The translations under genes were made by a program, and so were the position numbers. A stretch of 64,000 nt of DNA from Selenomonadaceae bacterium (GTDB lineage Bacteria; Vulcanimicrobiota; Xenobia; Xenobiales; JADMJV01). How positions within the stretch are numbered: the stretch's first letter is position 1; each line of letters opens with the position of its first letter. This document shows positions 37,933-41,937 of the stretch, one piece after another. A model generated the notes under the pieces. The model was not told the origin of the DNA, did no database searches, and worked only from the letters and a program-made list of their open reading frames with translations. The stretch lies in contig JBBCJA010000012.1 of NCBI GenBank assembly GCA_037189585.1, positions 58,693 through 122,692 on the forward strand, in the 5' to 3' direction.

Positions 37933-37966
37933 TCGCCGCCAGCTTTCGCGCGGTAGCGCTGCCAGT
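37933..37966. repeat. Dispersed repeat unit (copy G) abutting tandem array 2
   Basis: GTCGCCGCCAGCTTTCGCGCGGTAGCGCTGCCAG shares the CCGCCAGCTTTCGC core with copies E, F and H. Confidence 0.5.
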
Positions 37967-38424
37967 TTTTCTGATCGCGCGCACCTCACGCGGGCAACGC
38001 TGCCAGTTTTCCTGATAGCGCGCACCTCGCACGGGCAACGCTGCCAGTTTTCTGCGATAGCGCGCCCTTCGCGCGGGCAACGCTGCCAGTTTTCTTGATA
38101 GCACGCACATCGCGCGGGCAACGCTGCCAGTTTTTCTGATAGCGCGCCCCTCACGCGGGCAACGCTGCCAGTTTTCTGCGATAGCGCGCACCTCACGCGG
38201 GCAACGCTGCCAGTTTTTTTGATAGCGCACCTCGCGCGGGTAGCGCTTCCAGTTTTTTTGATAGCGCACCTCGCGCGGGTAACGCTACCAGTTTTTTGAT
38301 AGCGCACCTCGCACGGGCAACGCTGCCAGTTTTCTGCGATAGCACGCCCCCTCGCGCGGGTAACGCTGCCAGTTTTCTGCGATAGCACGCCCCTCACGCG
38401 GGCAACGCTGCCAGTTTCCGCGAT
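37950..38424. repeat. Tandem array of about 12 degenerate ~41-bp units (array 2), the reverse-complement orientation of array 1
   Basis: The unit is GCGGGCAACGCTGCCAGTTTTyCTGATAGCGCGCACCTCrC. The reverse complement of its constant half, AAAACTGGCAGCGTTGCCCGC, differs from array 1's AAAACTGGCAGCACTGCCCGC by 2 nt. Confidence 0.8.
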
Positions 38425-38437
38425 AGGTGGGAAGGGA

Positions 38438-39319
38438 CTAGCCTGAGATGGCTTTGGTCATCTGATGGAGCGCTGCCTTCTGGCGAAAGCCCAACGAGGT
38501 GTAGAGCTTGAGAAATTCCGGGTTGTCCGTCTTCCAGATCTGGCGAATCAGCTTCACTTCTGGCTGTTGCCAGGCGAATTCCAAAGCGGAGCACAAAAGA
38601 GCCACGCCGTAGCCGTGACGCCTGTAGTCAGAGCGAATTCCAAAGGATTCGATGATGGCTGTCTCTTCGGCTAACTCCAGCTCCAAGAATCCAACCATCT
38701 GGCTCTCACGTTCGGCCACGAAGATATGATAATCGGGGAGCGACAGAAGGAGGTCCAGAAACTGTCGGCTGCGAGGTTGAAATATCTTGCCGTGCAACGC
38801 GATATAAGCATCGCGATCAAAAGCCTTCCCTCCAACCACGTGGCGCAGGGTCAAGCCGGGAACTTCCGGCTTCCCGCCCTGATACGGCTGGTCGCAAGTC
38901 ACGATAAGCTGAGTGCTTCCCTGCTTGAAACCCAATCTTTTCAGAAACTTCTCGCCCAGCCTGTTCTCGTCTTCTAAAAGAACGGAGACGGTGGAGACCC
39001 GCCGCGAGCGCATCAGGTCGGCGAGTTCGTGCCAGAGCCTCTCCCCCAATCCCTGGCCTCGCTCGGAATAAGCCACAACCGGCCCATCCATACGGGCGTG
39101 CCCGTCAGATGGGGTGGAGTAACCGCAGAAGCCTAATAGGTCGCCCTTTTGGCTTTCCACTACGAGATAGTCTTTTTTGGGATCGCCACCTCTTTCAGAG
39201 ATCTCGGCCTTGAGGCGATCAGGAGTCAAACCGGAAAGTCTAGCGGAATCCCGGTAGGTCTGATTAAGAAGGTCGGCGACGGGCAGATAATCGGAGGCTT
39301 GGAAATGACGGATGATCAT
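38438..39319 (-). CDS. Tandem-GNAT N-acetyltransferase (MshD-like architecture)
   Basis: Two acetyl-CoA-binding motifs: RGQGLGERLWHEL and RRHGYGVALL. Confidence 0.7.
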   Translation of the reverse strand: MIIRHFQASDYLPVADLLNQTYRDSARLSGLTPDRLKAEISERGGDPKKDYLVVESQKGDLLGFCGYSTPSDGHARMDGPVVAYSERGQGLGERLWHELADLMRSRRVSTVSVLLEDENRLGEKFLKRLGFKQGSTQLIVTCDQPYQGGKPEVPGLTLRHVVGGKAFDRDAYIALHGKIFQPRSRQFLDLLLSLPDYHIFVAERESQMVGFLELELAEETAIIESFGIRSDYRRHGYGVALLCSALEFAWQQPEVKLIRQIWKTDNPEFLKLYTSLGFRQKAALHQMTKAISG

Positions 39320-41241
39320 GGCTTGAGTCTGATTCTTTTTCTCACCGGCTCGGACTGTCCTGTCGCCGGGTCGGCCAGTCCGGGCGGTTTGGGCCCAGGA
39401 TATTGAAAGAGTTCACAGGGGATCGTACCGTTGTAGATTTTGCGGACTCGTTCCGGCTCTTTCCCATAATGAGAGACGAAATTTTCAAACCCCGTATAAA
39501 AGTAAAGCGACCAAGTCTCGTGAAGCGGCTCGAAAACCTCAGCCATGGTTTCAGTCAACGCGGCCACCTCATCTTGAGAGGAGAGGCGTTTTCCATAGGG
39601 CGGGTTGGTGATCAACACGCCGTAACGCCGAGACGTCTCGAAGTCCGCCACATCTCGAGTTTGAAAGTGCAACCCAAGTCCCTCAAAGCCGGCTTGAGTC
39701 ACGTGTTCGCGAGCCAGTTTGAGGACGCGTCCGTCGACATCGCTACCGTAAAGACGGAGGTGCGCTCGTCGCACCTGGAGGTCACGCGCCTCTTTGTGGA
39801 CCTCCTCCCACGGCTTGCGTCCCAACCAGTCCCAGCGCTGGGAGGCAAACGAACGGTCCAAGCCGGCCGCTTTTCTCAGGCCGATACTGGCCGCTTCCAA
39901 GAGGATGGTTCCACTGCCGCACATCGGGTCGTACAATTCGCGCTCCGGGCTCCAATGGGAAAGCAGAACCAGAGCCGCGGCCACCGTCTCGCGCAGGGGC
40001 GCCTTGGCGTTGTAAGTGCGATAACCACGCCGATGGAGACCTTCACCCGAGGTGTCGATGAAAACCCGAGCCCGATTGTAGACGATAAAGACACGAATAG
40101 CGAATTTCGCACCGCTTTCCGAAAAGGCGGCTCGACCGTAGGTCTCGGACATCTTTTGAATGGCGGCCTTTTTCGCTACAGCCTGACAGGAGGAGACACT
40201 TTCGAGCTTCGACTTGGTGGTGATCGCCTCAACGGGGAACCAGGCGTCGCGTGGCAGCATGGCGGCCCAGTCGATGGCGAGCACGCCCTGGTAGAGCTCC
40301 TCGAAGTCACGACACGGAAACTCGGCCAACTGTAGCCAGACGCGGTCGGCCGTGCGCAGCCAGTAGTTGGCTTTGGCCAGGTTGTAAGGAGAGAAAGGGA
40401 AAGAGACCTGGGCGTTCTGGCGCGAGATCGGACCCAAATCCAAAGCTTCGAGCTCTCGTCCGACGGTCAATTCCAGTCCTAGAGCGCATGTCGCAACCAG
40501 CTTGAGCTGCTGATCGGCTGGAGGCTGGTTGAATTTCTCGGAGTCGGGGGCACGATAGTGCTCTCCGTCGCGGCGTCGGCTGTAACCGCCCTCGCGTCTT
40601 GCCACCGGCGCATTCTGGTTCTCGTGTCTTTGTCCGTGTTCTCGTTGGGGCGGTCGGCGAAAATCATCCCGACGCGGCCCGTCATCGCTACGAGGACCTC
40701 CATCGCGGGTATAGCCACCCTCGCGGCGCGGACCGCCCTCGCGGTTATAGCCTCCACCCTCACGGCGGGGACCACCCTCGCGGTTATAGCCTCCACCCTC
40801 GCGGCGCGGACCACCCTCGCGGTTATAGCCTCCACCCTCACGACGGGGACCACCCTCTCTGCGCGGACCGCCCTCACGATTGTAACCTCCATCCTCGCGG
40901 CGGGGTCCGCCCTCGCGGTTATAGCCTCCACCCTCACGACGGGGACCACCCTCGCGGTTATAGCCTCCGCCTTCACGACGGGGACCACCCTCGCGGTTAT
41001 AGCCTCCACCCTCGCGGCGGGGACCACCCTCGCGATTATAGCCGCCGCCCTCGCGGCGCGGACCGCCCTCCCGACTGTAGCCGCCGCCCTCACGACGGGG
41101 ACCACCCTCTCTGCGCGGGCCGCCTTCACGGCCATAGCCGCCGCCTCGGTCCTGACCTCCTTCTGGAGGTGAGCTTCTCCTCTGGCCTCGAGAGGGTCGA
41201 CGGGGGGCGTCGCCCTTGGGATCTCTATCGTGTGGCTCCAT
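39316..41241 (-). CDS. THUMP-domain class I SAM-dependent RNA methyltransferase (RlmL/UPF0020-like) with a ~230-aa N-terminal Arg/Gly-rich tandem-repeat extension
   Basis: The C-terminal part carries DPMCGSGTILLEAA (motif I) and NPPYGKRL (motif IV). The N-terminus is about 13 copies of REGGPRREGGGYN. No alternative start is available at the THUMP boundary, which is encoded CTC-AAG-CTG. Confidence 0.65.
   Translation of the reverse strand: MEPHDRDPKGDAPRRPSRGQRRSSPPEGGQDRGGGYGREGGPRREGGPRREGGGYSREGGPRREGGGYNREGGPRREGGGYNREGGPRREGGGYNREGGPRREGGGYNREGGPRREDGGYNREGGPRREGGPRREGGGYNREGGPRREGGGYNREGGPRREGGGYNREGGPRREGGYTRDGGPRSDDGPRRDDFRRPPQREHGQRHENQNAPVARREGGYSRRRDGEHYRAPDSEKFNQPPADQQLKLVATCALGLELTVGRELEALDLGPISRQNAQVSFPFSPYNLAKANYWLRTADRVWLQLAEFPCRDFEELYQGVLAIDWAAMLPRDAWFPVEAITTKSKLESVSSCQAVAKKAAIQKMSETYGRAAFSESGAKFAIRVFIVYNRARVFIDTSGEGLHRRGYRTYNAKAPLRETVAAALVLLSHWSPERELYDPMCGSGTILLEAASIGLRKAAGLDRSFASQRWDWLGRKPWEEVHKEARDLQVRRAHLRLYGSDVDGRVLKLAREHVTQAGFEGLGLHFQTRDVADFETSRRYGVLITNPPYGKRLSSQDEVAALTETMAEVFEPLHETWSLYFYTGFENFVSHYGKEPERVRKIYNGTIPCELFQYPGPKPPGLADPATGQSEPVRKRIRLKP
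40650..41165. repeat. Coding tandem repeat with a 39-bp period (about 13 copies) encoding the REGGPRREGGGYN array
   Basis: The 39-nt unit ACCCTCGCGGTTATAGCCTCCACCCTCGCGGCGCGGACC is reiterated. The overlapping ORFs on other frames and strands are artefacts of the repeat. Confidence 0.7.
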
Positions 41242-41782
41242 GCGCTTTCAACCATTCCACTACGTTCGGGAAGCCCTGATCTCGAGCCTGAGACAGCGGA
41301 GTCCATCCTTCGTAGTCGCGAGAATTTACGTTGGCTCCGGCCGCGACCAGAACCTTCACTACCGAAAGGTGACCGTTGAAAGCCGCAACGTGCAGCGGCG
41401 TGCCTCCGTTCACCGATTCTTTAACATTGGGCGAGGCGCCCGCTTTCAAAAGCGCCCGCATAGCTTTGTCCAATCCAGACAGAGCCGCCTCGTGCTGGGG
41501 TGTCCAGCCCTTCTCCTGGGTCACCGGCCAACCCGCGGCCAGAGCCTGACTCCAAAACTCTTCCCCCCGCGGTAGAACCAGATGAAGCAGCCCGTGTCCG
41601 CCCCGACGCACTCGAAAGAGGTCCCCGATACTGTGAGTTCGCAGAACTTCTCCGAACTGTTCCGCCGTTCCGTCTTCAGCCACAGCCATGGCCTCAGGCC
41701 CGGTCAAAGCCCAACATGTCCGCTCTGTCCCCCACAGGAGAAGAAAGGACAAAGCGTAGATTATCAACCGGCGAATGAACAC
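41225..41782 (-). CDS. Secreted ankyrin-repeat protein
   Basis: Signal peptide, then at least three ANK repeats: GWTPQHEAA, GGTPLHVAAFNGHLSVVKVLVAAGANVN and EGWTPLSQA. Confidence 0.7.
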   Translation of the reverse strand: MFIRRLIIYALSFLLLWGTERTCWALTGPEAMAVAEDGTAEQFGEVLRTHSIGDLFRVRRGGHGLLHLVLPRGEEFWSQALAAGWPVTQEKGWTPQHEAALSGLDKAMRALLKAGASPNVKESVNGGTPLHVAAFNGHLSVVKVLVAAGANVNSRDYEGWTPLSQARDQGFPNVVEWLKAHGATR

Positions 41783-41937
41783 GTTTGGTCAATATATAGG
41801 CCCGAGTGCAACCTGGCAACACAAAAGGTGATCGGTTGGCCACGACGTAAACGGGCCCCATCAATCGTGGCTCTCAAAGCGCTGACCTAGATGGTGGCCT
41901 GAACTTCGAGTTTTTTCGCGCCAACCTGGGCAACCTT

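Follow-up and report, generated by a model that had tools for sequence, protein, structure and literature searches.

The minus strand of the window (the whole 64,000-nucleotide stretch analyzed here, from contig JBBCJA010000012.1 of a bacterium placed in the Vulcanimicrobiota) carries a gene for a standalone RlmL-type THUMP RNA methyltransferase whose catalytic core is preceded by a 246-residue arginine- and glycine-rich arm containing a tandem repeat of a 39-bp, 13-residue unit, REGGPRREGGGYN. We are highly confident of the enzyme's identity, the translation of the arm, its 13-residue repeat, its presence throughout the clade and its absence from a sister clade. For the mechanism proposed below by analogy, in which the arm would act as an RNA tether or chaperone and its repeat number would be set by recombination or slippage, we put the chances at about even. 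The explanation as a whole, a translated, clade-wide, disordered basic arm on an RlmL-type enzyme together with that mechanism, is one we are inclined to accept.

The gene is a complete coding sequence at 39316..41241 (minus strand), a single unbroken open reading frame (ORF) of 641 codons running from an ATG at 41241 to a stop at 39316, as the original prediction had it. Residues 247-620 form a complete standalone RlmL/Smu472-type core. Three Pfam families each exceeded their gathering scores, in the order ferredoxin-like, THUMP and Rossmann methyltransferase: the RlmL ferredoxin-like first domain (residues 247-301, 40339..40503; PF22020, E=7.8e-14), the RNA-binding THUMP domain (residues 311-396, 40054..40311; PF02926, E=3.5e-7) and the class I S-adenosylmethionine (SAM)-dependent methyltransferase domain UPF0020 (residues 405-611, 39409..40029; PF01170, E=1.1e-44), all on the minus strand. 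SAM motif I, DPMCGSGT (residues 438-445, 39907-39930), and the catalytic motif IV, NPPY (residues 546-549, 39595-39606), are invariant in the alignment of relatives and line up with the structures 3K0B, 3LDU and 3LDG, to which the UPF0020 domain was aligned. By phmmer, residues 245-620 were matched end to end by 3K0B (334 bits), 3LDU (311 bits) and 3LDG (297 bits), the last of which is Streptococcus mutans Smu472 with 373 of its 384 residues covered; the N-terminal half of Escherichia coli RlmKL also aligned with the core (162 bits). In an AlphaFold2 model built from 22 sequences the predicted local distance difference test (pLDDT) score of the core was ~90, and Foldseek superposed it on the same three structures at template modeling (TM) scores of 0.91-0.93 and 39-43% identity (3LDG, TMt 0.92 and 39% identity), with RlmKL matched at E=3.7e-33. 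The gene encodes a standalone RlmL/Smu472/YpsC-type (COG0116) THUMP-domain, SAM-dependent RNA N2-guanine methyltransferase, and its domains, sequence matches and fold bear out the predicted canonical THUMP and NPPY core. The core itself is ordinary, a standard standalone RlmL-type enzyme.

A Trm14/TrmN-type tRNA m2G6 methyltransferase was considered and rejected. The corresponding NCBIfam model (NF040721) gave 131.7 bits, below its cut-off of 280, and the Trm14/TrmN-type folds 3TMA and 3TM5 matched worse than the Smu472-type folds (TMt 0.72-0.79, 18-20% identity). Smu472 has been shown experimentally to make m2G2445 in 23S rRNA (PMC3367195), the RlmL half of RlmKL makes the same modification, and Bacillus subtilis YpsC is regarded as an orthologue (PMC3367195; PMC7408541). 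The substrate of the window enzyme is probably 23S rRNA G2445 too, as assigned by homology alone. Smu472, YpsC and the RlmL half of RlmKL (3LDG, 3K0B, 3LDU, 3V97) share its three-domain core with the SAM and NPPY motifs, but they start directly at the first domain, whereas the window enzyme adds the 246-residue arm and a basic C-terminal tail. The E. coli protein has a fused RlmK half, which the window enzyme lacks.

The arm consists of an N-terminal leader (residues 1-37, MEPHDRDPKGD...; 41131..41241, with the ATG at 41239-41241), a tandem array (residues 38-191, 40669..41130) delimited by Tandem Repeats Finder, unit parsing and codon-position analysis, and a non-repetitive basic linker (residues 192-246, 40504..40668) delimited by alignment of relatives, all on the minus strand. 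Tandem Repeats Finder placed a repeat with a period of 39 bp and 85-89% matches in the 5' third of the ORF, as predicted, and reported higher-order periods of 96, 135 and 174 bp; the repeat is in frame with the RlmL first domain, THUMP and UPF0020. The array had been described as perfectly periodic, with 13 copies spanning 40650-41165. Parsing instead gave the shorter span above and nine canonical 13-residue units (REGGPRREGGGY[NS]), one of which ends in S and one of which has D for G, together with two 6-residue half-units, REGGPR (41113-41130 and 40861-40878), one 12-residue unit and one degenerate terminal unit; "GGPR" anchors number 13 in total. An Rfam scan of the whole 64-kb window returned no matches, and therefore no known RNA element explains the repeat. 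No other credible protein rich in R, G and K was found in the window.

The arm is almost certainly fused to the enzyme and translated with it, judging from codon usage in the array and from the ORFs of relatives, which came from Vulcanimicrobiota metagenome-assembled genomes (MAGs) and metagenomes and shared 68-97% identity with it over the core. No two of the nine canonical units have the same DNA sequence, yet in the frame of the enzyme they give only three peptides, compared with nine and eight in the other two frames. The 15 variable columns among them are distributed over codon positions 1, 2 and 3 as 1, 2 and 12, and the pairwise differences as 14, 16 and 176. Such a third-position pattern would not arise from gene conversion alone and marks purifying selection acting on the peptide. 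The repeat greatly exceeds chance expectation and is constrained at the protein level. In six loci an ATG lies 17 nt before the stop of the upstream ankyrin gene, giving overlaps at 41225-41241 in the window, 2872-2888 in L002, 2422-2438 in L003, 1922-1938 in L004, 972-988 in L006 and 1949-1965 in L009. From this conserved ATG full in-frame ORFs extend over 443 (L002), 599 (L003), 572 (L004), 529 (L006) and 570 (L009) residues. The linker motifs PRR[DE]F.[QR]RHE and RREGGYSRRR are kept in relatives that are 73-97% identical. Codon pattern, ORFs and linker motifs all agree with the predicted fusion of a low-complexity domain to the enzyme.

We weighed against this the alternative that the repeat is untranslated, with the enzyme starting at or downstream of codon 213 and the array being a 5' leader or a mis-joined ORF. 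The statement in the original prediction that no usable start codon exists at the THUMP boundary does not strictly hold, since codon 213 is an in-frame GTG (40603..40605, minus strand) located 34 codons before the first domain; it is the only plausible downstream alternative start. This GTG favors an untranslated repeat, and so do the downstream starts often chosen by gene callers in relatives (P0002, P0003, P0005, P0007, P0015 and P0027) and the openness of all three frames on each strand across the array. The GTG is not conserved, however, being GCC in the 97%-identical relative L006, and the conserved linker motifs sit upstream of it. A sigma-70-like site (TTGCCA-17-TATATT, 10/12, a consensus match only) was found at 41791..41819 (minus strand), just upstream of the ankyrin gene, as the only promoter-like match on the strand; consensus matching found no such site between the array and the catalytic domains. 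With the third-position-only variation being specific to the methyltransferase frame and the short calls being artefactual where DNA was checked (see below), we regard an untranslated repeat as very improbable.

Several database entries for orthologues are only ~380-410 residues long, and in the three for which DNA was checked (L003, L004 and L009) the short entry is a gene-calling artefact, as the full ORF runs from the conserved ATG. In L003 (2435-2917 and 3001-4221) and L004 (2097-2450 and 2447-3640) a wrong-frame "hypothetical protein" was annotated over the repeat, followed by a truncated methyltransferase; in L009 (2501-3661) the NCBI MAG annotation begins the enzyme ~184 codons late and contains no spurious gene. 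The possibility that the arm is a separate small gene in some lineages, suggested by genes of 160 and 117 residues between the ankyrin and methyltransferase genes, was also rejected: in those contigs the small genes are read from the repeat in the wrong frame, and the correct frame runs on without a break into the enzyme. Since gene callers mishandle the repeat, MAG annotations probably record too few such arms. In practical terms, the repeat defeats standard gene callers, with the enzyme truncated in three relatives and a spurious wrong-frame gene added in two of the three.

Repeats are a classic source of misassembly, and the array could be real while its copy number or arrangement in the window is an artefact of collapse, expansion or strain chimerism. 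The window's exact protein is not on record in public assemblies, and close relatives have fewer units, ~5 in L007 (a k127 contig) and ~3 in L006 (a Logan assembly). Logan assemblies use small k-mers, which makes the low count in L006 the less trustworthy one. Exact repeats within the array reach at most 44 bp, with the next longest at 41 and 35 bp, since every unit carries its own synonymous differences; the array should therefore assemble uniquely with reads or k-mers of at least 55 bp. The reading frame is intact, and independent k127 and k141 assemblies of relatives hold comparable arrays in the same place. An assembly artefact is therefore improbable in our assessment. That copy number varies between near relatives is supported, and the window's exact number is given as assembled only. 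The predicted variability of the repeat is supported by orthologue comparison, with copy number and unit type differing between close relatives (L006, L007 and L003).

All 21 clade members examined (21/21) have an open, in-frame, predicted intrinsically disordered region (IDR) that is 43-246 residues long and carries a net charge between +7 and +37, and the arm in the window is the longest among them. The arms cannot be aligned across the clade, and both their length and their sequence change rapidly. Distinct units have been amplified in separate lineages: a 14-residue unit, REGGPRREGGGGYN, in L007; eight copies of another 14-residue unit, REFDGPRGEGRPPR, in L003; a ~17-residue unit, RQEGGGAPRREGSGYRD, in P0004; and a ~15-residue unit of the RGPRRDDSKGSYG type in L004. 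Some other members have Lys/Ser-rich, non-repetitive arms. The units of many lineages (13-17 residues) share a GPRR[DE] element and an aromatic residue. The sister clade L008 (~52% identity) has the same gene order and no arm, its enzyme starting from a TTG that overlaps the ankyrin stop by 4 nt (TTGA). Among the best 150 representatives of 50%-identity clusters from 1.8 billion proteins, the only R/G-rich N-terminal arms in the family were those of the two in-clade entries; other N-terminal extensions in the RlmL family were rejected as upstream over-calls or unrelated S/A/K-rich stretches. From these comparisons the arm appears to be a derived, clade-restricted and persistently maintained trait of this Vulcanimicrobiota lineage.

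The arm is predicted to be a structure-less, net-positive N-terminal extension. In the AlphaFold2 model residues 1-243 had pLDDT scores below 50 and no secondary structure. Residues 1-246 are 27% Gly, 22% Arg, 12% Glu and 11% Pro, and include 55 Arg and 13 Tyr; the net charge is +15 (57 R+K versus 42 D+E). The recurring words are REGG (22), GGPRR (12) and GGY (12). With 22% Arg, predicted disorder and its position on an RNA methyltransferase, the arm qualifies as an Arg-enriched low-complexity segment on an RNA-processing protein. Arg-enriched low-complexity regions are over-represented in bacterial proteins for RNA, rRNA and tRNA processing (PMC6821194).

We propose that the arm may tether the enzyme to RNA, or act as an RNA chaperone, by binding RNA flexibly, at many points and without sequence specificity. 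Electrostatic attraction and pi-contacts would come from Arg, stacking from Tyr, and flexibility from Gly and Pro. The arm could thereby raise the rate at which the enzyme captures 23S rRNA that is nascent or only partly folded, and the time it dwells there. Opening of helix 74, where m2G2445 is made, may also be aided. RlmK, the other half of the fused E. coli enzyme, stimulates RlmL and unwinds this helix (PMC3351187), and the proposed role would be a functional parallel both to the help that RlmK gives RlmL and to the basic IDRs of bacterial DEAD-box helicases. Unequal recombination or slippage would determine the number of repeats, with selection acting on the peptide sequence and on net charge.

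Several observations weigh against this explanation or parts of it. The choice of substrate, 23S G2445 versus tRNA or other RNA, rests on homology, and the NCBIfam RlmKL model (NF008748) scored 247 bits against a cut-off of 466; that model describes the RlmK-RlmL fusion, so that only profile positions 3-380 of 704 can match. The argument that a conserved MAPPDK-like N-terminus proves the start was downgraded: the codons concerned also encode, in another frame, the C-terminus of the ankyrin protein, which confounds their conservation. The conserved position of the ATG and the open frame remain valid evidence of the start despite the overlap. L007 (93% identical) has an in-frame TAA in the arm (L007 77-79, TAT in the window), 77 nt from the contig end, a change that may reflect either a sequencing error or a real nonsense allele by which the arm would be shortened or lost. 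Enzymes of the Smu472 type work, and the sister clade manages, without an arm, so that it is not needed for catalysis. The arm is strongly polyampholytic, with evenly interleaved charges and a modest net charge density. Finally, a regular-expression scan of residues 1-246 found 0 tri-RGG, 0 di-RGG, 0 tri-RG and 0 di-RG motifs, with one RGG and two RG overall. The RGG/RG motif as defined by Thandapani et al. in 2013 reportedly comprises tri- or di-RGG, or tri- or di-RG, with spacers of 0-4 residues. The description of the domain as RGG/RG-rich accordingly fails in this defined sense, and "RGG box" is a misnomer for the arm. The interleaved acidic residues would favor a modest, tunable affinity over a strongly cationic clamp, and would make self-coacervation less likely than RNA-dependent association.

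Some of these points are shared by the view that the arm is a tolerated, fast-evolving low-complexity sequence with no RNA-directed role, perhaps left by replication slippage at a permissive N-terminus, or that it has a non-RNA function, whether as a bristle that acts entropically or keeps the protein soluble, as a surface for protein-protein docking, or as a spacer that coupled translation with the overlapping ankyrin gene requires. The complete turnover of primary sequence among relatives, with lengths from 43 to 246 residues, would be expected of such a sequence, and the arm-less sister clade and characterized homologues, the stop in L007 and the well-mixed charges with low net charge per residue are in keeping with it. 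It is harder to reconcile with the strongly synonymous variation among units, which points to selection on the peptide, with the open frame and positive net charge kept by 21/21 relatives despite the turnover, with the conserved linker motifs, and with the recurrence of a similar repeat type specifically on other RNA-binding and RNA-modifying proteins. We consider a merely tolerated arm unlikely.

That recurrence was seen when the arm alone was searched against 5.8 billion proteins, which returned mainly RluB-like pseudouridine synthases of the Bacteroidaceae, an RRM protein and an actinobacterial hypothetical protein. The RluB-like 23S rRNA pseudouridine synthases (P0123, P0147 and P0238) have N-termini built of (Y)NREGGYQ(Q)R repeats, and the RRM protein (P0121) has a C-terminal tail with PREGGYNRE. 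On sequence grounds, R/E/G/Y repeat chemistry appears to recur convergently on RNA-binding and rRNA-modifying proteins. Like the window enzyme, the Bacteroidaceae synthases carry an N-terminal R/E/G/Y tandem-repeat arm on an rRNA-modification enzyme, and the words NREGGY and REGG are common to both; they belong, however, to an unrelated catalytic family (S4 and PseudoU_synth_2) and another phylum, and their repeats are Gln-rich and lack GPRR. The resemblance is compositional or convergent (E ~1e-7) rather than homologous. Glycine-rich RRM proteins (the plant and cyanobacterial GRP type, and bacterial P0121) likewise have a Gly/Arg/Tyr-rich tail with REGGY(N) words beside an RNA-binding domain, but the tail is C-terminal to the RRM and the proteins are small RNA chaperones, not enzymes. 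The RluB-like group (P0123-P0240) is large and well sampled, with proteins of ~390-421 residues whose N-terminal repeat extension of ~150 residues varies in copy number; no description of its (Y)NREGGYQ(Q)R extension was found in the searchable literature.

The original prediction had called such a fusion unusual on a bacterial rRNA-modification enzyme. Within the RlmL family this stands, the R/G-rich arm being confined to the clade among the best 150 representatives surveyed, whereas more broadly it does not, given the similar repeats on Bacteroidaceae RluB-type synthases and an RRM protein and the published generality of Arg-enriched low-complexity regions on bacterial RNA-processing proteins (PMC6821194). 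No prior description of an R/G-rich arm on RlmL/THUMP methyltransferases was found in the literature searched. Basic disordered appendages on bacterial RNA enzymes are known already, and the arm is a further variety of them. In Pseudomonas aeruginosa the basic IDRs of the DEAD-box helicases RhlE1 and RhlE2 raise RNA binding and unwinding and promote condensates (PMC11260450), and they are the functional model that we follow for the arm. These C-terminal IDRs resemble the arm as disordered, Arg-rich, fast-diverging appendages on a conserved RNA-acting core, but they lie at the opposite terminus, on another enzyme class, and are not near-perfect 13-residue repeats; their function has been demonstrated, whereas we infer that of the arm.

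Fibrillarin/Nop1 also joins an N-terminal Gly/Arg-rich (GAR) disordered domain to an rRNA methyltransferase (PMC7194090; PMC12862394), and the lack of the GAR domain in archaeal orthologues (PMC7194090) parallels the lack of the arm in the sister clade. The GAR domain differs in having true RGG repeats, often Arg-methylated, and fibrillarin itself, a snoRNA-guided 2'-O-methyltransferase, belongs to a different fold family. The likeness bears on the idea that the arm is a sticker-spacer (Arg/Tyr) domain which would mainly drive or partition the enzyme into RNA-rich ribosome-biogenesis condensates and so be the bacterial equivalent of the GAR domain in fibrillarin. The 55 Arg and 13 Tyr residues are regularly spaced in a Gly/Pro-rich disordered chain, lineages have amplified units repeatedly and independently, which suggests selection for valency, and bacterial helicase IDRs do phase-separate (PMC11260450); the architecture itself, a GAR domain with a methyltransferase in eukaryotes and an archaeal protein without it (PMC7194090), fits as well. 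The arms of some relatives, however, have only 43-59 residues and no repeats, too short for scaffolding, the high and evenly mixed acidic content disfavors self-coacervation, and no other protein in the 64-kb window has a similar domain. Condensate partitioning is thus a distinctly unlikely account of the arm.

Equally doubtful, in our view, is a bolder form of the proposal, in which the arm on this housekeeping enzyme of an uncultured phylum would be an independently evolved fibrillarin-GAR-like Arg/Tyr module with its valency tuned by repeat expansion, acting either in a nucleolus-like condensate or as a helix-74 chaperone in place of RlmK. If the former were true, the module would gather nascent rRNA together with the enzyme and possibly with further biogenesis factors; if the latter, the arm would be an RNA chaperone that needs no ATP and takes over from the RlmK helper in opening helix 74. 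Should the arm work as a tether or chaperone, as we propose, the clade would be a natural allelic series, in which the same core bears arms of 0-246 residues with several unrelated repeat units. Such a series could be used to examine how basic disordered appendages modulate rRNA-modification enzymes and the assembly of ribosomes in bacteria, and would allow one to ask whether the combination of GAR domain and methyltransferase arose convergently in bacteria.

At its other end the enzyme has a disordered C-terminal tail (residues 620-641, 39319..39384, minus strand; pLDDT below 50 for 625-641) that ends in the basic sequence VRKRIRLKP. The tail motif [KR]RI[RP][LI]xP (residues 632-641, 39319-39348), which is predicted to be disordered, is kept in every arm-bearing relative and is missing in the arm-less sister clade L008.

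The methyltransferase gene lies in a conserved, tightly packed ankyrin-methyltransferase-GNAT cluster. Its first gene (41225..41782, minus strand; Pfam Ank) encodes an ankyrin-repeat protein of 185 residues with a signal-peptide-like hydrophobic N-terminus, and the downstream gene (38438..39319, minus strand) encodes a two-domain (tandem) GNAT acetyltransferase, whose ATG overlaps the methyltransferase stop (ATGA) and whose best NCBIfam match is RimI, below the cut-off. DNA polymerase IV (dinB) follows the cluster, and an MFS transporter is divergently transcribed. Synteny of the cluster was seen in L002, L003, L004, L008 and L009, the order in L008 being MFS, ankyrin, methyltransferase, GNAT and Pol IV; the ankyrin and GNAT genes are strictly syntenic with the methyltransferase in both the arm-bearing and the sister clades. 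No functional link between the cluster neighbors and the arm was evident from gene context. The 17-nt start/stop overlap in the six loci suggests translational coupling, and the termini of the two proteins constrain each other's sequence.

A second, non-coding repeat was found between the GNAT stop and the Pol IV start (window 37940-38430), where a 38-43-bp unit, GCTGCCAGTTTTCTGCGATAGCGCGCACCTCGCGCGGGCAACG, is present in ~12 tandem copies. Repeats of this type had no copies elsewhere in the window and no Rfam match, and no significant RNA structure was found in this 42-bp intergenic repeat neighboring the cluster (fold z-score 0.05). In relatives the gap between the GNAT and Pol IV genes is only 15-40 nt.

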